From: a virus
Reading direction: 5' to 3' (one strand)
IMG/VR virus record: IMGVR_UViG_3300019762_000001
Location: 16,701-80,700 of that record
DNA: 64,000 bases
Below, piece after piece: positions 13,917 through 60,901 of this stretch (its first letter is position 1; every line of letters begins with the position of its first letter). Made by a program: the position numbers and the translations under genes. Under the pieces are notes generated by a model, which did not search any database, was not told the origin of the DNA, and saw only the letters and a program-made list of their open reading frames with translations.

Positions 13917-14549
13917 TTATTCTGCTAGGATAAACTTCTTAGCCAACTCAGCCCTGTCCTGTGGATCATCCGACCAAGTGTCAATTACTAAGACCTTAGG
14001 ACCACATTCAGTGGTACCCTGCAGCTCAGTTAAGTAATACTCGAATACTCGATCTACCATACGCTGATAGTAGAGGTTAGCTACTCGAGAATTATTAACC
14101 TCAATATCTGGGCATACAGATTTAACGTAGATAAGATGAGTTAAATTCTCGAAAGCCTCTAAAGCTTCTTCAAAGAACTTCTCAAACTCTTTTTCTGTAA
14201 AATTATGCCCGCATTGTAATGAAGCATAAGTTAGGTTATCTACCGGGCTTCTATCCAAGATCATTTGGTCAGCCCCATAAGATAATATATTAGCCCTAGC
14301 CTCCAGTGCATACTGCTGAAAGGTTTTACCAAATTCGGGGTTAGCATTAGATAGGTTAATCACGTTTTGATGCCCCATGTTCTTATACCCGAACTCAGCT
14401 AAGTGTTCTTTTTGTTGGTCTGTAAAGATTAACCCAACAGATGATGGTATAAATCTCAAATGTAACTGTTCTGATAATAGGTTACATAATGTGGTTTTGC
14501 CCGAACCCGATGGTCCACAGCATGCGACTTTAATGTTCTTTGCATCCAT
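13917..14549 (-). CDS. Deoxynucleotide monophosphate kinase-like P-loop protein
   Basis: GPSGSGKTT and LDRSPVD motifs. Confidence 0.75.
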   Translation of the reverse strand: MDAKNIKVACCGPSGSGKTTLCNLLSEQLHLRFIPSSVGLIFTDQQKEHLAEFGYKNMGHQNVINLSNANPEFGKTFQQYALEARANILSYGADQMILDRSPVDNLTYASLQCGHNFTEKEFEKFFEEALEAFENLTHLIYVKSVCPDIEVNNSRVANLYYQRMVDRVFEYYLTELQGTTECGPKVLVIDTWSDDPQDRAELAKKFILAE

Positions 14550-14569: not shown

Positions 14570-16795
14570 TTAGTCATAATCTTCTACTTGAGTGTCACCG
14601 TATAGTTCCATCTCCCATTTCTTAGCTAGCTCAACGTAATCAGTTTTAGGATCATAGTCGTGGTAATTACCCCACGTTGGACCCAACTCGCAACTAACTT
14701 TCATGTTAACATGCTTAGCCTGAAATCCAAACCATTTCTTAGTTTGGGGGTTAGCACATATATCAATCATGGGAGGTACTATCTTATGAACATCTTTTGG
14801 TTTTATATAAAATCCTAAAGAGTCATGAACAGTATAGCACTGTTGGAAATACTCTGGGAAATACCCCTGTAGTCTTTTTTCTCTTACTAAGATACTCGAG
14901 AATTGAGTGTAATCTGAAGAGGTTCCCTGAATGGGAGCATTCACTGATTGTCTCTCAGCCTCTGATCTTATCCCTATTACGTTAGAGTATATATTTGGTA
15001 GCCTTCTTTTTCTACCAAAGTATGTTCTTACATAGCCATCTCTGGCAGCTTTCTTGTGTTGGTTCTTAATCCATTTCTCAACCTTTGGGTAAGCAGCATA
15101 CCAATCCCGTTTGAACTGACCGGCTTCATCTGCAGTACATCCAATTGTCTCTGCTAGCATTGGATCTGATTGGCCATATAGGATACCGAACCCAATAGTC
15201 TTAGCTCTTTTCTTACGCTTAGTCCAATAGATATGTTCTGGATGTGATTCATCCTTGGTTATCTCATATACCTCCTCGTATTTTTTGTAAAGCTCATCTC
15301 CCTTTAAATGGGGGAACTCAGCTCTGGTGGCAGTATAAACGTGTAATGAAAGCCCAGATCTAAATGCTTCTATTAGATTCTCATCTTTAGACATCTCAGC
15401 TACCACTCTCATCTCAGCCTGTGAGTAGTCAAACTCTATCATAAGCATACCCCTAGGTGGCCTGAACATGGGTTTAATATCAGAATTTGTTGTAGCCCTT
15501 GGGATATTCTGAAGGTTAGGTTCTACCGAGGATAATCTCCCAGTTACCGTTCCAAAGATTTTATATGAAGTATGGAGTCGGTTATCTTCTCCAAGTATCT
15601 CATACATACCTTTGATGTTAGTGGAGTATAGTTTGGATAATCCCCTATGTTCTAGCATCCTTGCCACAAACCCATCTTTGTCTTCCCCAGATTTACGTAT
15701 CTTAAGCAGAGCCGATTCAGCTGTGGATACTACCCATTCCTTCTTCTTATTCTTCTCCTTAACCTCAGTAAATCTAAAACCATGTTTGTTGTAGTATAGA
15801 AGTTCTTTTAGTTGGGTTGAACTACTCAAATTCAGGTTTGCTATTGCATTTCTTTCCTTATTCGTAGTAAACTCTCCAGCTATATACTTGCTAACTTTAT
15901 CTTCTCTAGTTTTGATCTTTCTAGAGTTATCTATACTATCATCCTCTTTCTCTTCTTTTTTAAGAGCCTTGATTTCCTTCTTGGTATCCTTAATGAGTTT
16001 CTTTTTGGCCTTCTCAACCTTCTTAAGGTTATACTTCTGAATTACCTTCATCTCATATAACCCCTTTTCAGATTCCTCAATCTTTTTACCATATACTTCT
16101 ACCAAGTTCTTAAGGTATGGCCTATCTACAATCATACCCGTATACTCGGACTCTGATAGAACTCGTAGGTTCATCATCAGAAGGTTCCTGAATAACGGGT
16201 AGAAGCCAAGGCTCATTAGCTTTGGTTCAAAGAATAGCCATAATCTAAGAGTAGAGTCACAGTCCTTTGCACAGTACTTAGATAAGCCCTCAAGTGGTTT
16301 TTTATTCCAAGGTAATTTGCTCCCCTCGTAATCTTCATAGCCATCAAATTCTGGTATAAACCTACCAACCTGCTCTTTCAAACCATGGGGTCTTTCCTCA
16401 TCTAATAGGTATTTTGCTAGGATAGTATCAAACCAATATCCTTTTGGAATAATGCCATACCTCTTAAACCATTTCATTTCAAAAGAGGCATTGTGGGCTA
16501 TCTTGACTATATTTGGATCTGCCATTACCTCTCTTCCAAATTTCTGTAGTAGTTTTATCCACTTATCGGATTTTTTGAATGGCGAATCGAAATGACCTAA
16601 AGGTAATACCCAACCAGATCCAGGTTGGAAACTACAACCCAATACTGTGGGATATCCCCCTGGATCACAGAAGGCTCCATCATCATCCCGGGTGGTAGTT
16701 TCGAAATCGACAGAAGCATAACCGGTCATCTTGCAATAACGGATAAGCTTATCCAGCTCTTTCTCTTTGGTTATTATTTTGTAGATTGATTTCAT
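14570..16795 (-). CDS. polA: Family A DNA polymerase with 3'-5' exonuclease domain
   Basis: DFETT exonuclease motif, TGRLSS..PNLQNIP, DYSQAEMR, AKTIGFGILYG and VHDS. Confidence 0.95.
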   Translation of the reverse strand: MKSIYKIITKEKELDKLIRYCKMTGYASVDFETTTRDDDGAFCDPGGYPTVLGCSFQPGSGWVLPLGHFDSPFKKSDKWIKLLQKFGREVMADPNIVKIAHNASFEMKWFKRYGIIPKGYWFDTILAKYLLDEERPHGLKEQVGRFIPEFDGYEDYEGSKLPWNKKPLEGLSKYCAKDCDSTLRLWLFFEPKLMSLGFYPLFRNLLMMNLRVLSESEYTGMIVDRPYLKNLVEVYGKKIEESEKGLYEMKVIQKYNLKKVEKAKKKLIKDTKKEIKALKKEEKEDDSIDNSRKIKTREDKVSKYIAGEFTTNKERNAIANLNLSSSTQLKELLYYNKHGFRFTEVKEKNKKKEWVVSTAESALLKIRKSGEDKDGFVARMLEHRGLSKLYSTNIKGMYEILGEDNRLHTSYKIFGTVTGRLSSVEPNLQNIPRATTNSDIKPMFRPPRGMLMIEFDYSQAEMRVVAEMSKDENLIEAFRSGLSLHVYTATRAEFPHLKGDELYKKYEEVYEITKDESHPEHIYWTKRKKRAKTIGFGILYGQSDPMLAETIGCTADEAGQFKRDWYAAYPKVEKWIKNQHKKAARDGYVRTYFGRKRRLPNIYSNVIGIRSEAERQSVNAPIQGTSSDYTQFSSILVREKRLQGYFPEYFQQCYTVHDSLGFYIKPKDVHKIVPPMIDICANPQTKKWFGFQAKHVNMKVSCELGPTWGNYHDYDPKTDYVELAKKWEMELYGDTQVEDYD

Positions 16796-17091
16796 TTATT
16801 TCCATTCTTTATCCGTTCGGTGAATAGGGTGAGCTTATCTCTGTGCTCTCTTTTCCTAGCCTGTTTCTCTAGAGGTTTATCAAATACATGCTCTTCTAGA
16901 ACTGTTAGGTATATCCTAACCTGAGCCATTTCGGCTTGCAGGTTAGGATCTTGGAAGTCTTTATTATCATTTAAGCCCTTTGCTAAGCATTGTGTAAGCT
17001 CAGCCATTTCCTCTATGAGTTTTGGTATAAAATATTTCTTACCCCTCAGCTTAACATAGGACTTAAGTATTTTAACATCAGCCTTGTTCAT
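16792..17091 (-). CDS. MazG-like all-alpha NTP pyrophosphatase (possibly degenerate)
   Basis: KLIEEMAELTQ...AEMAQV (usual form EIADV). Confidence 0.55.
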   Translation of the reverse strand: MNKADVKILKSYVKLRGKKYFIPKLIEEMAELTQCLAKGLNDNKDFQDPNLQAEMAQVRIYLTVLEEHVFDKPLEKQARKREHRDKLTLFTERIKNGNK

Positions 17092-19015: not shown

Positions 19016-19801
19016 TTAGTATTTAGATTTTACTCTGAATAGATTGATACGGTTCTTTTTATAGTATACCTGTATGAATCCTAGTGGAGTCATTTGCAAT
19101 GTACCTAAGCATAGTTTAAAATAGATCGTAGCAGCTTCTATTAATCTACTCTTAAACTTATTCTCATCGGTCATTACCTGATGCTGTTTCCAGGGTTTAT
19201 TCTTTAGAACATTCTTGGCCATCTGGAGTTTGTAATTGAATTGCCAGTGGGATTCTATGAGTAATGCTGTGTACTCGGAATCTACCTCTCCAAGTATATC
19301 CCCAGCGGATAGGTAATCAATATGATTCGGGTATTCTCCGGCCAGGTTAAAGAGTTTGCAGGTAGAAACTGGTTTAGCAAACCCCCCATAGTACATTGTA
19401 CTCATAGGGTCTAGGTTGGTTTCATCACCCGCCATAGCTATTTCTAACTCCCTTGGTGTAACCCCAACATAAATCAGGGTCTCAAGTAGGAATGCAGTAG
19501 TATCCGCAATTTCCTCATTGAAACCAGCAAGGTTAGCTAAACTTCTTGTACCTAAGCTCATTAGCTTTTCGTAGTATTCCCAACCTTCCCCAAGTTCCTC
19601 AGCAATTCTGCCGATGAAATCTTTTAGGATAACCTGACTCTTAGGTTCGTGTGGATTGATTGGCCACTGTGGTAGTGATTCTACCCTTACATACTCAACC
19701 ATCAATTCTTTCTGAAGGTCGAATAACACTGATATACCATCCCCGTTGTGTATTTTACTTACCAATTCTTTGGGAAGATTAGGTGCTGATTGAATGTCCA
19801 T
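19016..19801 (-). CDS. Dimeric all-alpha dUTPase/dCTPase-like pyrophosphatase (T4 gp56-like)
   Basis: EELGE, EEIAD, KNKPWK and YYKKNRIN..R...Y motifs. Confidence 0.75.
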   Translation of the reverse strand: MDIQSAPNLPKELVSKIHNGDGISVLFDLQKELMVEYVRVESLPQWPINPHEPKSQVILKDFIGRIAEELGEGWEYYEKLMSLGTRSLANLAGFNEEIADTTAFLLETLIYVGVTPRELEIAMAGDETNLDPMSTMYYGGFAKPVSTCKLFNLAGEYPNHIDYLSAGDILGEVDSEYTALLIESHWQFNYKLQMAKNVLKNKPWKQHQVMTDENKFKSRLIEAATIYFKLCLGTLQMTPLGFIQVYYKKNRINLFRVKSKY

Positions 19802-51399: not shown

Positions 51400-52887
51400 T
51401 TATCTTGGTGTTACTACTGAACTTCTTAATGGTGATTTACGAACATGATTGGTTATGGCTTTAGCTAAGATAGCATCATCTGTGTAATATTCATCATCGT
51501 CATCCTTGGCATCATCTTTACCTAGGGCAATAGCTTTATTATTATTGTTATAAATAAAAGTGTATGCCTCTTGTACAAAGAATGGGTCTTTTATTAATAC
51601 CAAATCTCTTCTAACATCATCCTCTAAAGCATCGATTATTACGGGACGAGTTGAACCCGTGGTTAACCATCCAGGAACTAATTGTTCCTCTGGCTTACTC
51701 TTACCCTTTTTCTTTAGAAATTGAACTGTGTAATATAAGTTTGGGTACCCACTTTCTTGTATCTTTGTGGTAACTGCCAATCCGATATCATTAGTCTCAG
51801 GTGCTATCAGGGCATTATTGAACATTCTGCCATAGTACATAAGTAAATCAGCAAAATCACCAACTGGTATTTTACCTTTGAAATATCCACATTCATTACC
51901 CTCTCTATCCATAATACTAAATGCAGAGTAATCTCGTGACCTACCCGTTGCAACGTCAGCTCCGATATAGTAATATTTATTTGGTTTAGGTCTATCGGTG
52001 ATTACTAAAGTACCGTTACGTTTCTTTTCTACTACTTTCCACTCGGTAAGCATATCCTCGATAGCCTTGATATCTTCTAGGTCAAATACGGTATGCCCTG
52101 ATGATAGGAAGTCACCATCAATTTCTTGGGCTGTTCTTCTAGGACCTAGACCTGCTGCCATTGTGTCATACCATTTTTGATCTCTGTCAGGGTGCATCTG
52201 CCAGTGTAATCGTATTGGGTTAAAATCATTACCCCCAGCGATAGCATCTACCCAGGTAGAATGGAAGAAGTTACCTACCCCATATGGTGTACTGTTTAGG
52301 ATAGCAGAACCCCCGGTTGATAGTGTAGGGAAAGCTGCTGCCCAAATAGTATTAGCCCAACGTACAATTGCTGCCTCATCGATTACTAAAAGAGATACAG
52401 CCTCTGAACGACCAGCATCCTCAGTAGTTGGTATAGAGGTAATTAGGGAACCATTAGCAAATTCCATTTCCTGTGCAGTACCATATTCACCAGAACGGCC
52501 ATTTACAACGGCTACTTGCATATATTCTGGCAGGTTTTTGTACATGAACTTTATCTTTTTCAGTACTTTCTTAGCTACCCTATCTTTAATGGAGATGATT
52601 TGGATATTCTTATTTGGGTGGAACATCGCTAGCCACAGACAATACATCGAGATTAACTCGGTTAATCCCGCCTGTCTAAACTTTAATACGATATTGAAAC
52701 GTTGTGTTAAAAAGTACCATAGGGTCCTTTTCTGATAAGGGTATAACCCAAATCGAACCCTACCGTGTACCGGGTTAATTACGTGTATAAAATTGGAGAA
52801 GTGGAATGGATCTTCTTTTACTTTCCGCAGGGTTTTAAACTCGGATTTAGTTAAACCCCGTTTTTTAATCTCCCCTACTTTTGCCAT
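51400..52887 (-). CDS. terL: Terminase large subunit
   Basis: KFRQAGLT, VIDEAA, STPYG, IGADVATG..DYSA, ETN and DDAILA. Confidence 0.95.
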   Translation of the reverse strand: MAKVGEIKKRGLTKSEFKTLRKVKEDPFHFSNFIHVINPVHGRVRFGLYPYQKRTLWYFLTQRFNIVLKFRQAGLTELISMYCLWLAMFHPNKNIQIISIKDRVAKKVLKKIKFMYKNLPEYMQVAVVNGRSGEYGTAQEMEFANGSLITSIPTTEDAGRSEAVSLLVIDEAAIVRWANTIWAAAFPTLSTGGSAILNSTPYGVGNFFHSTWVDAIAGGNDFNPIRLHWQMHPDRDQKWYDTMAAGLGPRRTAQEIDGDFLSSGHTVFDLEDIKAIEDMLTEWKVVEKKRNGTLVITDRPKPNKYYYIGADVATGRSRDYSAFSIMDREGNECGYFKGKIPVGDFADLLMYYGRMFNNALIAPETNDIGLAVTTKIQESGYPNLYYTVQFLKKKGKSKPEEQLVPGWLTTGSTRPVIIDALEDDVRRDLVLIKDPFFVQEAYTFIYNNNNKAIALGKDDAKDDDDEYYTDDAILAKAITNHVRKSPLRSSVVTPR

Positions 52888-53582
52888 ATCCTGTATTTCA
52901 ATGTTAGTCCTAATGAGTTAGTATCATAGTCTAATAGTCCTAGTCGGCTTTCAAGCTGTAATGAAAAACGTCTTACTGGAATCTCTAATCCTACACAGGC
53001 AACTGGCTGTTTCCCGAAGATATCATACCCAAAACCCGTATAACCATTGAACCTCCTACGTCTTGGGTCTTTTGGGATAGGTGATGGTTTTAGTTTTGTT
53101 GGGTTTCGGGAGAATTTGTTGTTTGAGTAGTAATAGTCGAATTCGGATAAGTATATTGGATATTTCTCACCAAGGATATCACCATTTATTCGTAACATAT
53201 TAAGTATTAAGGTATCTCTGTTTAATTCCATGCTTATTAGTTTACTAGCCCGCTGATATTTACGTAGATATTGCTTACTAATCCACACTTCTGATTGTAA
53301 ACCATTGATGATTAGTGATAGAGAATCTCTTAATTCCTTGATAGCGATGGTGTCCTTTACGGGTTTATCTAGGTATTTGATAACCTGTTTTGGCTGTGTT
53401 GGTATCCCTTTTATTGGATCCTTGGTGGGACTAGGAACTTCGATGGTATCAGTGGTATACTCATACCTTATCTCTGGTACAGGTTTTTCTTTAGTGAAGA
53501 TATCTCCAATACCTCTGACCAGTATACACAGTAGGATTAGGATTACGATGAACTTCATCTGGGTAAACTTCTTATTATTCAT
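52875..53582 (-). CDS. Membrane-anchored protein, spanin-like candidate
   Basis: N-terminal TM helix, extended middle region, C-terminal amphipathic beta strands; near the endolysin. Confidence 0.45.
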   Translation of the reverse strand: MNNKKFTQMKFIVILILLCILVRGIGDIFTKEKPVPEIRYEYTTDTIEVPSPTKDPIKGIPTQPKQVIKYLDKPVKDTIAIKELRDSLSLIINGLQSEVWISKQYLRKYQRASKLISMELNRDTLILNMLRINGDILGEKYPIYLSEFDYYYSNNKFSRNPTKLKPSPIPKDPRRRRFNGYTGFGYDIFGKQPVACVGLEIPVRRFSLQLESRLGLLDYDTNSLGLTLKYRIWQK

Positions 53583-53589
53583 GATCTAA

Positions 53590-53800
53590 GTTATTTAAGG
53601 ATTTCTGAATTAATAGGGGATCGAAGATCCCCTATTCTGGATCGAAGATCCAGATCCATTATCCATGTTATTTAAGGAAAATTTTTAATAAATAAATAAC
53701 TCCCCTAAAGGGGAGTTATTTATTATTAATATTATTATAAATATATATATATATACTTTGTATATATATATTTATAATAGAAAGAGGGATCTGCGCGCGT
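53590..53800. repeat. Cluster of four inverted repeats with an (AT)n tract
   Basis: Inverted repeats at 53612-53636, 53636-53654, 53691-53724 and 53733-53779. Confidence 0.85.
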
Positions 53801-53820: not shown

Positions 53821-54327
53821 CTATTGAAACTGGGGGTTATTGAATATCCCCCAATACACTTCATGTCCTTCGGCTATCCAGCCTTCCACGATCTTTAGTA
53901 AATCCTTATCACTACGGTTTTGTATAACCTTAGGGCTTACTCTTCGATATGCTGTAACCAAACAACCCTCAGTGTCTAAGTGGGTATTACCACCATGGTT
54001 TCTTATACCACTAAATTCTATGATACCATCAGTACAGATATACCTACCATCAGAAGTTTCCTCATTATAGAGCAGGATCATGTCGCGTTTAAATCTAGTT
54101 GAGCGGGATACTATTACTCTATACCAACCTTCTGGGATGGCAGTCTTCCTAGCAACTTTAACTCCAATTGCTCTAACTGCATCTTCCAGCTGGTAAGAGA
54201 AATGTTTTCCCTCTACAAGTACATCGCTTAGAGTAGTATCCTCAAAATACTCTCTACGATTAGAAATTATAGTCCGAGTCTTTGCCGGATTTCTTCTTAC
54301 ATCTTCTTCTGAGATTCTTTTTGCCAT
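53821..54327 (-). CDS. DUF5675-family putative endolysin
   Basis: LED, TAIPEGWY.V, FSGIRNHGGN...DTEGCL. Confidence 0.8.
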   Translation of the reverse strand: MAKRISEEDVRRNPAKTRTIISNRREYFEDTTLSDVLVEGKHFSYQLEDAVRAIGVKVARKTAIPEGWYRVIVSRSTRFKRDMILLYNEETSDGRYICTDGIIEFSGIRNHGGNTHLDTEGCLVTAYRRVSPKVIQNRSDKDLLKIVEGWIAEGHEVYWGIFNNPQFQ

Positions 54328-55331
54328 AGCTCAGTCTTTTTAATTTGTTTATAAAACCATCTTCCTATCTCATAGGGTGGGCACTTAGTTACAGTTACCC
54401 TACCCTTATTTATTGAATAGCCCAGTCTTTCTTCATCTATCCAGATTTTGAATCTGTCTGGTACTCCCTGTATTCTGGCCATTTCCCTTGGTGACATTTG
54501 GTAACCATCTGGGGTGAATTGCCTATTTTGTTTTCTAACGGTTTTTGGGGGATCTCCAGCAAAATTCTTATACACACCGGGAAGATTCTTCATCTTAGTA
54601 CCGGGCATTGACCATTGCTTTTGGTCCCTGTATTGGTTATTCCATATATCTCTTACCTGACCAAGATTTAATTTCCGGCCCTTATAAGACATACAAACCA
54701 CAGTGTCATCGGGCTCCCTAACTTGCCCAAACTCAGGATGTAAAGTGGGCAAATCGTTTAATAAGTCTCTAGTATTCTTTAATTCTTTAACTGGATAGAT
54801 TTTATTTAAAGTGCTAATTACTTTTCTAGAGTCTACTAGAAGTTGCCTATTTACTCCAATTATTACCAATCTAACTCTCGTAATCTGAGAGTTACCAAAT
54901 TTAGATACCGAATCCTTGAAAATGGTTAGCTCATAGTCTTTCTCTATCTCTTCTATTAAATCCGGAGATAAGCTCTCTAACATCTTCGGTAGGTTCTCCA
55001 TTAAGAAAGCCTTTGGTTTATATAATCTTATCGAAGCCCAATAAAGGCTTAGTGATTCATTATCATTTGGGTCACTAAGTTTCTTAGCTCGTGAATATGA
55101 AAGGACAGATGAATGACCACAGTCGGGTGCACCGATGATGATATCGGGTTGAAGTCCATTAAATTCTACAGAATCAAGTTCTTTTACCAGTGGAATGCCA
55201 GGAAAGTTTAACTCCCATTGGATATCATTGGGTGTTTTAAATGCTGTCCTGGGTTCTATGTTGCCCATTAGATATTTTTTAAAGGGGAATAGGACTACTC
55301 CATTACCCCCGCATACGCCAAGTACTTTCAT
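54297..55331 (-). CDS. Atypical DNA cytosine-C5 methyltransferase homologue
   Basis: GAPDCGHSS (IV), MENL (VI), Q..RVR (VIII) and REMARIQGVP (IX); motifs I and X are divergent. Confidence 0.8.
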   Translation of the reverse strand: MKVLGVCGGNGVVLFPFKKYLMGNIEPRTAFKTPNDIQWELNFPGIPLVKELDSVEFNGLQPDIIIGAPDCGHSSVLSYSRAKKLSDPNDNESLSLYWASIRLYKPKAFLMENLPKMLESLSPDLIEEIEKDYELTIFKDSVSKFGNSQITRVRLVIIGVNRQLLVDSRKVISTLNKIYPVKELKNTRDLLNDLPTLHPEFGQVREPDDTVVCMSYKGRKLNLGQVRDIWNNQYRDQKQWSMPGTKMKNLPGVYKNFAGDPPKTVRKQNRQFTPDGYQMSPREMARIQGVPDRFKIWIDEERLGYSINKGRVTVTKCPPYEIGRWFYKQIKKTELWQKESQKKM

Positions 55332-58894: not shown

Positions 58895-58930
58895 AAAAAA
58901 TAGGGGACAGATTATTTTTGTCCCCCTATC
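58895..58930 (-). terminator. Terminator of the AT-rich cassette
   Basis: Minus strand ATAGGGGGACA...TGTCCCCTA followed by T6. Confidence 0.75.
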
Positions 58931-58936
58931 TAAATC

Positions 58937-59026
58937 TTAAATAAATATTCTTACAATCTGAAATACAATATAACAACTGAATAAAATCAGAAATACATTT
59001 ATTTTATTATTTAATATCTTTTTCAT
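58937..59026 (-). CDS. 29-aa hydrophobic peptide
   Basis: MKKILNNKINVFLILFSCYIVFQIVRIFI; ATG overlaps the upstream TAA. Confidence 0.5.
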   Translation of the reverse strand: MKKILNNKINVFLILFSCYIVFQIVRIFI

Positions 59027-59208
59027 TACACTAGCTTTAATTTATCTAAACTTTTAAACAACATTAATAAACATACAGTCTTTAATAATAGAATTGTAAC
59101 AACTAATAAAACAGTTTGCAAAGGAGTTAACTCCGTATTATTAAATAATTCTGTATATGCTTTTACAATAGCTAAGATTAAAAAGATAGTAGTAATAAAG
59201 TATTTCAT
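59026..59208 (-). CDS. Small two-TM membrane protein
   Basis: 60 aa with two hydrophobic helices. Confidence 0.65.
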   Translation of the reverse strand: MKYFITTIFLILAIVKAYTELFNNTELTPLQTVLLVVTILLLKTVCLLMLFKSLDKLKLV

Positions 59209-59302
59209 AATATATAGTTTTTAAATTTTAAAAAAAAGAGAAATAAGGAGCTTATCAATTGCGGAATTAATAAACTCCTATTTGGGCTATTTGGGTGAAT
59301 GA

Positions 59303-59824
59303 TTATGCAATCTTTTTAAATATTTGCTGAATATCAGCATCCTTTATTTTAAAGTTTTTAACTTCTTTTAAAAATGTATCTATTGATGAATACATTTTAG
59401 ATGAAATGTTACAAAGAGACTCCGGGGTGAAATCATTAATCAAATAACAGTCCTTATAATATTTTAAGAATCCAACTATTAAAACTTGTTTGTCAGAATC
59501 ATTTGCATTATTATAAGCGTTTATCATTTGCTCTAAATGTTTTCTAAATTTAGATCTTTGTCCGCTTGTATTTCTTTTTTCAAAATTTAAAGACTTAACA
59601 TGCTTTTGTGCATTCACAAAAACTAAATCTTCTTTTTCAACTGCAAAAACAAATTTGTACAATCCTTTTTGAGAATTTGCATTTGTTGTTTTTACATTAA
59701 GCTCATTTGCTTTTTCTAAAATTGAATCCAAATTAGATAAATCTAATCCCAATAATTCATCGTCTGAAACGTTTACTTTTTTTACGTTTACTTTTGCTGC
59801 TTTTGTGTTTACTTTTGTAGTCAT
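59303..59824 (-). CDS. Hypothetical protein in the AT-rich island
   Basis: Start reassigned to MTTKV (59824), downstream of the promoter. Confidence 0.7.
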   Translation of the reverse strand: MTTKVNTKAAKVNVKKVNVSDDELLGLDLSNLDSILEKANELNVKTTNANSQKGLYKFVFAVEKEDLVFVNAQKHVKSLNFEKRNTSGQRSKFRKHLEQMINAYNNANDSDKQVLIVGFLKYYKDCYLINDFTPESLCNISSKMYSSIDTFLKEVKNFKIKDADIQQIFKKIA

Positions 59825-59885
59825 TTTGTTTGTTTTTAATTTGTCTAAATAAGACGTTAATAATAGTTTGTTTGTTTCTTCATTA

Positions 59886-59918
59886 CAAACATACGAAGAT
59901 TTTTTAATTTGCAACAAA
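59886..59918 (-). promoter_or_regulatory. Bacteroidota sigma-A-type promoter
   Basis: TTTG-21 nt-TATGTTTG with a very AT-rich upstream region. Confidence 0.75.
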
Positions 59919-60901
59919 TAAAAATGCAATTATTTTAATTTATTTTCTTATTTATTTTAATTTCAAATTATTAAAATAATTAATTAAAAATTTGGAATTA
60001 ATTAATTTTTTGATTTATTAATATCCTTATATACCAAAATCCAAATCCAAATCCCATCCCGGTTATAATTTCTACGGCCATGATAGCCTCTGGGCCCTAT
60101 TACATTCGAGCTTCTGGGCCAACCTATCCTGATCCTCTTTTGGGGCCCTTGTCCTGGGCTGGCGGGATCCCACGTCGGCTATGATAGCGGATCCCAGTTG
60201 TCCCTGACTGGAGCCCTCAGGATCCCATGTAGGCCTGATAAAGGATTAGAGGGATCCTACGTAGAGCGTTAGACATCCCAACATGTATCCAGCACTCCCA
60301 AACAAAAGACTCCCCAATCAAATCACCAATCCATGACCATAAGCTAAAGTACTATATATACAACTTAGAGAGCGGGGGGGGCTGGGGATGGTTCGGATGT
60401 GGGTTTAGTTTGTTGGGTATGGTATCAGGGCTTCATGGTTCCCCGTGGACACAGGCCTGATAGGTAAGCGCTGATAGTATTGGTTTGTATCTATTTCAGG
60501 TACCTAGATTTCTCTTGTATGTGGGCCATGATCCCGCAATGGTAAAAGAGCTTCCTAGCTTCATGGCCGGATGGCTGGAGTACCATACAAACAAAGGCTT
60601 CTGGGCTGTAGGGCCGGCTAGCAGCCGGGATAAGGGATGCCAGTGTTATTTCAAGCTCAAGGTCAATTAGGTATATGTGTAATTGAATATGTAGAGTGAT
60701 CCCAGTATATGTAGATGGGTACCTATGTTGATGTAGGTATATACGAATAATAAAAAAGGAGAAAAATAAGTAGGTGAGTAGTATATATGTGTAGTTGTCT
60801 TATATAGTTTCTAAGTTGTATATAGATAGTAGTTACTTAGTGGTTTTCTAGATAAGGGTTGTTTTGGGGGGGGGTGGGACGTTTGGAGTGCTGTGGGACA
60901 G

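Follow-up and report, generated by a model that had tools for sequence, protein, structure and literature searches.

The DNA stretch analysed here (the window) is 64,000 nucleotides long. It corresponds to bases 16701-80700 of IMG/VR record IMGVR_UViG_3300019762_000001, a phage genome of 80.7 kb that has direct terminal repeats. We examined a gene in this window (P0001; 54297..55331, minus strand) that encodes a 344-residue homologue of cytosine-C5 DNA methyltransferases, with an ATG start and with Cys71, Glu112, Arg152/Arg154 and Lys316 as its key residues. The best explanation for our observations is that P0001 is a virus-only, late-expressed predicted DNA cytosine-C5 enzyme, which forms an optional DNA-level add-on to cytosine replacement. 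Our best guess for its role, to which we assign a probability of roughly 40%, is post-replicative tailoring by this methyltransferase-like enzyme of a cytosine derived from a thymidylate synthase (TS) homologue, and the enzyme probably introduces or edits a mark on DNA that has so far escaped measurement. This reading is carried by features that we establish below, namely the modelled fold, the catalytic residues, a conserved but rebuilt donor pocket, a one-way dependence on the cytosine-type TS homologue TS-D, and the position of the gene at the head of a late operon. New here are the presence of TS-D and a second TS-fold protein in all 20 near-complete relatives, the linkage to TS-D in a related clade, and the frequent occurrence of TS-D alone. 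An initial annotation had proposed a hypermodification or editing enzyme, or one with another cofactor. Of that interpretation, the TS pair, its co-occurrence with the gene and a lysine at the donor site have held up, and a loss of S-adenosylmethionine (SAM) binding and an endolysin neighbour have not.

The predicted structure of P0001 leaves no doubt that it has the C5-methyltransferase (C5-MTase) fold, with a large target-recognition domain. Over residues 52-300 the protein matches Pfam PF00145 with 53.9 bits (cut-off, 22; E 2.4e-14), and it also matches PHROG 116, 'DNA methyltransferase'. Matches of the single sequence to solved methyltransferases are weak (3g7u, E 5e-4; HaeIII, E 0.017), and the family profile raises the match to E 1e-10, with a marginal match to CmoX (8yf3; E 5e-4). 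We modelled the protein with AlphaFold2 from an alignment of 91 sequences; the model has a predicted local distance difference test (pLDDT) score of 94 and a predicted template modelling (pTM) score of 0.92, and displays the two-domain C5-MTase architecture of a Rossmann catalytic domain and a target-recognition domain. Superposition of residues 1-340 gave Z scores of 25.0 to 3g7u, the enzyme of prophage CP-933R (root-mean-square deviation 2.5 over 282 residues), 23.8 to M.HaeIII (1dct), 23.4 to CmoX (8yf3) and ~22 to M.HhaI, and Foldseek agrees with these structural matches. The PF00145 match and the full-length fold obtained by structure prediction therefore uphold the original call of a C5-MTase homologue.

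The catalytic residues of this fold are intact in P0001. In the translation, motifs I, II, VI and IX read VLGVCGGNGV, GNIEPR, MENLP and PREMARIQGVPDRF, respectively. Motif IV is GAPDCGHSS, with Asp and not Pro before the Cys and Gly for the usual Gln. Motif VIII is GNSQITRVR, a Q-x-x-R-x-R pattern one residue longer than the canonical QxRxR, and in motif X VTKCPP replaces GNAVP. The initial annotation had reported the same features (a Cys in PDC, with EN and RxR kept, VCGGNG and TKCPP), and had described the SAM-binding motifs as eroded. The motif reading is correct, but erosion does not describe it, as the motifs are invariant or nearly so in 30 relatives at ~50% identity. The invariant or near-invariant residues in these homologues are G9, N10, G11, N24, E26 and R28 in the N-terminal part, P69, C71, G72, H73, S74 and S75 in motif IV, E112, N113, L114, Q149, R152 and R154 in motifs VI and VIII, and N308, K309, R311, K316 and P319 in the C-terminal part. 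Cys71 is invariant in all 91 sequences, with Asp or Asn before it and Gly-His after it; the canonical Pro-Cys (PCQ) of motif IV is absent, and APDC or, in some relatives, APNC stands in its place. Within the SAM-binding motifs, G9, G11 and E26 are kept, the motif-I Phe is changed to Val/Cys, and one Gly is changed to Asn. CmoX contacts adenine through the Phe of motif I and the Asp of motif III (PMC12783734); contacts of this type have no conserved counterpart in our family, in which no residue between F43 and I65 is invariant. As judged from the alignment, the donor pocket is rebuilt and was then fixed by selection. A loss of SAM binding, as had been suggested, does not follow from these changes; both the Glu of motif II and the G-x-G loop are still in place. 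A separate observation concerns a 531-residue homologue from the related clade (P0207), which has an intein-like insertion of ~190 residues (CFIDPN ... VVHN) directly before the catalytic Cys of GHPE|CGEYS. Placement of an intein exactly at the catalytic Cys suggests that this site is functionally essential.

One change in the pocket involves Lys316. In the AlphaFold2 model, motif X lies between a helix at 300-315 and a helix at 320-331, with a break at KCPP (316-319), which resembles the surroundings of the canonical GNAVP. The alignment of 91 rows pairs Lys316 with the Lys in the QTGKxxP motif of the related clade, at an identical K-x-x-P-x-E spacing. The profile of that clade matches HaeIII along its entire length (E 1e-32), and also HhaI, with the Lys on the Asn of GNAVP/GNSV. 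Together, the model helices, the family alignment and the related-clade profile indicate that Lys316 occupies the site of HhaI Asn304, in support of the motif-X register first assigned to the protein. A direct hhalign comparison of the family with one canonical enzyme covered only residues 61-203, a range outside which motif X lies. The altered motif X has the form T-K-(C/T)-P-P. Of 59 family rows, 51 have Lys at position 316; seven of the eight exceptions (Ser, Asn, Gln) form one subclade. At the same site, the 32 rows of the related clade contain Lys (23), Arg (6) or another residue (3).

Homologues of P0001 number more than 470 in metagenomes, many of them on contigs of 77-85 kb. When the library was clustered at 50% identity, 51 representatives scored below E 1e-30; these are followed by a gap and then by the related clade, which consists of proteins of 330-415 residues. 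In a tree, the members of the family group together (support 100%) on a long branch; the single canonical outgroup of this tree does not fix the link between the two clades. It is essentially virus-only, with just two matches among 185,579 prokaryote species represented by one genome each. These two matches (L237, CAYUYB010000097.1; L238, CAZQTT010000002.1) are located on contigs of metagenome-assembled genomes labelled Desulfobacteraceae and 'uncultured archaeon'. One of the contigs is 83 kb, the size of these phage genomes, and both matches are therefore probably mis-binned viral DNA. Among GenBank phage records, only two or three relatives were found, all from uncultured gut phages, and no mention of one of them, MT121964, was found in the literature.

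The phage also encodes a TS module of the kind expected for cytosine replacement. TS-D (P0268; 17078..17806, minus strand; 242 residues) has, in E. coli ThyA numbering, Cys146, Asp at N177 (within the RSADVFLHFGND motif), Arg at L143, Thr at H147 and a retained Asp169, and its nearest solved relative is the CMP hydroxymethylase MilA. Asp at ThyA-N177 changes the preferred substrate to cytosine nucleotides, and is over-represented in phage contigs that have modified cytosine (PMC8670742). The remaining signature is distinct from the three known classes. T4-type hydroxymethylases have Asp or Glu at L143, 5-hydroxy-dCMP synthases carry D169N, and a hydrophobic L143 correlates with methyl products (PMC13326640). 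The hydroxymethylase signature is absent from TS-D homologues, all of which have Arg at L143 in an R-x-P-C motif. Four relatives (G008, G010, G013 and G019) possess a canonical ThyA (E ~1e-70) besides TS-D, which fits a role of TS-D other than dTMP synthesis.

Near TS-D lies the gene for a second, very divergent TS-fold protein (P0269; 18143..19012, minus strand; 289 residues) with an invariant Cys117. It has no Pfam match, and the top structural matches of its model (pLDDT 89.5) are T4 dCMP hydroxymethylase, the HY126 dCMP hydroxylase and MilA. These matches, along with a Cys and an RSSE...FDF pattern at TS-like spacing, indicate that the TS pair recognized in the initial annotation is real, consisting of an Asp-type TS-D and a second TS-fold partner. 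The pair is flanked by two pyrophosphohydrolase genes. A MazG-like NTP pyrophosphohydrolase (16792..17091, minus strand; 99 residues; phrog_2245, E 5e-8) adjoins TS-D and is a candidate for dCTP clearing, and a nucleotide pyrophosphohydrolase (19016..19801, minus strand; 261 residues; phrog_12184, E 2e-18; phrog_173) lies beyond the second TS-fold gene. A P-loop kinase resembling deoxynucleoside monophosphate (dNMP) and thymidylate kinases (13917..14549, minus strand; 210 residues; PF01712; phrog_2107) and a family-A DNA polymerase with a 3'-5' exonuclease domain (PolA; 14570..16795, minus strand) are encoded a short way beyond. With an Asp177 TS homologue, NTP pyrophosphohydrolases and a dNMP kinase, the context of a T4-type replacement pathway is in place.

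The methyltransferase-like gene is tightly associated with this module. PF00303 matches were obtained in 19 of 20 near-complete family genomes and TS-D was found by phmmer in the remaining one, so that all 20 carry it; for the second TS-fold protein, 23 of 23 family genomes are positive. The co-occurrence with the TS pair that the earlier interpretation called for is thereby confirmed. Independent support comes from the related clade and not from the family itself, as that clade resides in very different phages (contigs of 40-160 kb). There, 44 of 49 loci encode a TS-D homologue of the same subfamily on the same strand; three of the five loci lacking it are cut by contig ends. The two genes are less than 400 bp apart in 28 loci and overlap by 4 nucleotides in 10. 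All of these TS homologues share the combination of Asp at N177, an R-x-P-C motif with Arg at L143, Ser/Thr at H147 and a retained Asp169. A typical operon of the related clade encodes a 170-residue protein, an AsnB-like amidotransferase (PF00733; in 30 of 55 loci), a dUTPase_2 or MazG protein and the methyltransferase-like enzyme, followed by TS-D, a dCMP-deaminase-family protein and PolA. In addition, a gene for an N6/N4 DNA methyltransferase often adjoins the methyltransferase-like gene, and fusions of the two occur, which points to DNA as the substrate. Two such fusions contain PF01555 in Pfam searches (L085:10001-12256 and L113:9794-12385), and a third was assigned by length and clustering (L096:9968-12274).

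The reverse association does not hold. A scan of IMG/VR with a TS-D profile returned 493 stretches, and in only 7 of 79 new loci was a methyltransferase-like gene within 8 kb of TS-D. Searches of whole records found the gene in none of five complete TS-D genomes and in none of three records of 36 kb that have terminal repeats. TS-D (RVPCS ... RSSD ... AND) is encoded by cultured C. perfringens phages, too, and the methyltransferase-like gene was not found in them. In one, Clostridium phage CPAS-15, a gene beside TS-D (L239:4208-4957; QGF20072.1) is annotated as a 'colanic acid biosynthesis glycosyltransferase', an analogy that would have suggested a 'tailoring slot' for the methyltransferase-like gene. 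This annotation is wrong; the protein has no Pfam match, and hhalign identifies it as homologous to the second TS-fold protein (probability 96%), which indicates that the TS pair exists in cultured C. perfringens phages. Because TS-D is common without the methyltransferase-like gene, the enzyme is best viewed as an optional add-on to the cytosine-replacement pathway. The dependence is one-way: the enzyme almost never occurs without TS-D, and TS-D often occurs without the enzyme.

P0001 opens the packaging/head operon, in which it is followed by genes for DUF5675, a membrane protein, terminase (large subunit, 51400..52887, minus strand), portal, protease and the major head protein. In 77 of 80 related loci, the methyltransferase-like gene is directly upstream of the large terminase gene.

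We propose the following mechanism. Pyrophosphohydrolases would remove dCTP. A group would be added to C5 of dCMP by the Asp-type TS homologue, possibly acting with the second TS-fold protein, and the kinase and PolA would carry the modified base into DNA. Shortly before packaging, the methyltransferase-like enzyme would flip out the modified cytosine, with Cys71 attacking C6, Glu112 protonating N3, and Arg152/154 holding O2 and the phosphate. The enzyme would then change the C5 group, for example through exchange via an exocyclic-methylene intermediate, with Lys316, as placed by homology, positioned against the C5 group where an Asn normally touches the SAM methyl. There is precedent for part of this chemistry, as a canonical C5-MTase forms covalent complexes with 5-hydroxymethylcytosine (5hmC) DNA and can remove the hydroxymethyl group (PMC11347137). 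That C5 is already substituted when the enzyme arrives, that DNA is its substrate, and the chemistry itself are all points that we infer. The most specific form of the proposal, in which a C5-MTase fold exchanges or rebuilds the TS-installed C5 substituent and does not methylate, is on the unlikely side. If it were true, P0001 would be the first natural editor of 5-substituted cytosine with a C5-MTase fold, and the phage would contain an undescribed DNA base.

Several considerations weigh against tailoring of a TS-derived cytosine. The family phages are related to one another, and co-occurrence within the family could reflect shared descent. No cultured phage with this family was found among GenBank phage records. 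Lys316 does not appear indispensable, given the subclade with Ser, Asn or Gln at this position. The retained G-x-G loop and Glu26 imply that the protein may still bind an adenosyl cofactor, which could be plain SAM, and engineered enzymes with Lys or Arg at the motif-X site keep SAM methylation (PMC13288465). Finally, five of seven tested Asp177 TS homologues encoded beside a deaminase, PRA-PH and PolA make 5-methyl-dCMP (bioRxiv 10.1101/2024.12.05.627091). Comparable modules thus mostly yield a methyl group, which would leave little to tailor.

These observations bear on the main rival explanation, somewhat less probable than tailoring, in which P0001 is an ordinary SAM-dependent 5-methylcytosine (5mC) DNA methyltransferase with lineage-specific motif variants that mops up escaped cytosines or protects specific sites from host restriction. 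Its membership in PF00145, intact catalytic residues, G-x-G loop and motif-II Glu are what such an enzyme would have, and Lys or Arg at the Asn304 site is no obstacle to SAM activity in the engineered enzymes. The related clade resides in exactly the operon type from which the 5-methyl-dCMP-forming TS homologues were taken, and a DNA-level step could finish 5mC replacement by writing the same 5mC as the TS homologue. The fusions to N6/N4 methyltransferases, the Asn at the motif-X site of some family members and a late-operon position suited to methylation before packaging are equally compatible with this explanation. It accounts less well for a family that is virus-only and that, unlike ordinary phage methyltransferases, almost never occurs without TS-D, or for the fixed manner in which Pro-Cys, Gln, the motif-I Phe and the motif-X Gly-Asn have been replaced. 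TS-D itself has Arg and not a hydrophobic residue at ThyA-L143 (PMC13326640), and the AsnB-like amidotransferase of the related-clade loci would have no role with a methyl mark.

A different donor was also considered. The initial annotation had raised carboxy-SAM as a possible cofactor, in which case P0001 would act as a CmoX-like cytosine C5-carboxymethyltransferase on carboxy-SAM supplied by the host, with Lys316 in the role of CmoX Arg350. One part of this idea stands, as Lys316 lies at the donor-choice site. CmoX Arg350 binds the carboxymethyl group of carboxy-SAM at this site (PMC12783734), and Lys or Arg at the equivalent position lets M.MpeI (N374K) and M.CviPI accept carboxy-SAM (PMC13288465). 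The structural match to CmoX (Z 23.4) is in line with this, and an AsnB-like ligase adjoins the related clade, as predicted for one CmoX subgroup (PMC12783734). The genomic context argues otherwise. A search with the profile TIGR00740 found no CmoA in any of 51 phage genomes (our own, 26 of the family and 24 of the related clade), whereas 4257 CmoA genes accompany 5615 CmoX genes (PMC12783734). Of 14 control genomes, only one passed the CmoA cut-off, and Bacteroides gave no match at E 0.01. Moreover, P0001 contains APDC and lacks the SPPC motif, no AsnB-like ligase (PF00733) was found in 24 family genomes including this phage, and the link to a dCMP-modifying TS homologue is left unexplained. 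With no CmoA in 51 genomes and no such ligase in the family, we rejected the carboxy-SAM route as the preferred explanation and consider it unlikely.

It is still less probable that the enzyme joins an unsubstituted cytosine in DNA to a non-SAM electrophile (an aldehyde, for example, or a one-carbon unit carried by folate), so as to install the same polar or anionic group that TS-D would put on dCMP. To our knowledge, no natural enzyme with a C5-MTase fold uses a non-SAM electrophile, which counts against the idea; the proposal is pure inference, and the conserved Rossmann G-x-G loop and Glu26 argue for a nucleotide-type cofactor. In its favour are a new cationic residue near C5 in both enzymes (Lys316, and Arg at L143 of TS-D), the poor conservation of adenine-contact residues, and the reversible reaction of C5-MTases with formaldehyde at C5, seen as dehydroxymethylation (PMC11347137). 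Lastly, an RNA or free-nucleotide target, or a catalytically silent binder of modified DNA, could be entertained given that the related-clade gene sits inside a nucleotide-metabolism operon and that the Dnmt2 branch of PF00145 acts on tRNA, but this is highly improbable for a protein with a large conserved target-recognition domain, full-length matches to DNA-bound methyltransferases, invariant Cys, Glu and Arg residues, an intein at the catalytic Cys of one homologue, and fusions to DNA N6/N4 methyltransferases.

Among the neighbouring genes, the one immediately following P0001 encodes a 168-residue DUF5675 protein (53821..54327, minus strand). The 3' end of the methyltransferase-like gene shares 31 nucleotides with it, and an overlap had been correctly noted from the start. 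Its designation as an endolysin is unfounded, as the gene matches DUF5675, for which no function is established. No relative of the protein was found among solved structures, an Atlas search yielded DUF5675 clusters only, and a glucosaminidase-domain gene is found elsewhere in the phage genome. In the bases of the genome preceding the window, the phage has genes (L084:323-838 and L084:13589-14074) for a pentapeptide-repeat protein (PF00805, E 2e-24) and a homologue of pyrimidine-dimer DNA glycosylase (PF03013).

Base composition gave no footprint of an enzyme target. An island free of AC/GT was not detected, as no 400-bp window contained 15% or less of the expected AC/GT count. A stretch poor in CC/GG at 58.9-60.0 kb was rejected as a candidate because AT-richness alone accounts for it (CC, 15 against 16.8 expected; GG, 14 against 12). 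This part of the window (58900-60000) is an AT-rich island with a G+C content of ~23%, containing a Lys-rich 208-residue open reading frame (59303-59929, minus strand) and a small membrane-protein open reading frame. Across the whole window, CpG is strongly under-represented (1019 observed, 2343 expected; ratio 0.43) with no matching excess of TpG/CpA, and GpC is near expectation (0.86). In addition, 400 bp at 53394-53793 contain no GC dinucleotide, the expected longest gap being ~243 bp; within it lie the spacer below the DUF5675 gene and the 5' end of the gene for the membrane protein.

Hypermodifications of phage DNA defeat restriction and CRISPR, and are a source of enzymes for epigenome sequencing; recent examples of such tools include CmoX, M.MpeI N374K and 5mC-selective deaminases. 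The family described here has hundreds of members, is restricted to viruses and is easy to express, and its donor pocket is altered at the one known donor-switch site. It is also genetically tied to dCMP-modifying TS homologues of an uncharacterised class with Arg at L143. Identification of the product would yield either a new cytosine mark together with a new reaction of the C5-MTase fold, or a finishing methylase for cytosine-replaced phages, and either outcome would clarify how complete base replacement is reached. The cultured C. perfringens phages with the same TS pair offer an immediate route to the precursor base.

P0001 can be compared with several known systems. With M.HaeIII (1DCT), M.HhaI (1MHT) and the CP-933R enzyme (3G7U), it has in common the two-domain fold (Z 22-25) and the motif order, including the Cys nucleophile, the ENx Glu, RxR and the RE.ARxQGFPD motif of canonical C5-MTases. 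It differs from these enzymes in having Asp/Asn-Cys-Gly-His for Pro-Cys-Gln, Q-x-x-R-x-R as motif VIII and Thr-Lys for the Gly-Asn of motif X, in the loss of the motif-I Phe and of a conserved motif-III Asp, and in belonging to a virus-only family tied to a dCMP-type TS homologue. With CmoX of Synechococcus phage S-B43 (PDB 8YF3), M.MpeI N374K and M.CviPI Y205K/R, it shares a cationic residue in place of the motif-X Asn. Like P0001, CmoX is a phage enzyme; however, our family has Lys and not Arg, APDC and not SPPC, and no CmoA in 51 genomes, and a neighbouring amide-forming ligase is confined to the related clade. The pathway as a whole resembles that of T4 (gp42, gp56, gp1 and the glucosyltransferases), as an Asp177 TS homologue, NTP pyrophosphohydrolases, a dNMP kinase and PolA are found here too, and as the accessory enzyme occurs only where the TS homologue does, like the T4 glucosyltransferases relative to gp42. 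In contrast to T4, the accessory enzyme has a C5-MTase fold and is not a glycosyl- or carbamoyltransferase, and a second TS-fold protein is present; TS-D differs from the hydroxymethylases in having Arg instead of Asp/Glu at L143, and from the 5-hydroxycytosine (5hoC) synthases in keeping Asp169. Other examples of cytosine replacement with optional tailoring at the DNA level are the 5hmC carbamoyltransferase (PMC8670742), the 5hoC and arabinosyltransferases of RB69/DLP3 (PMC13326640), and 5mC replacement of the Xp12 type (bioRxiv 10.1101/2024.12.05.627091).

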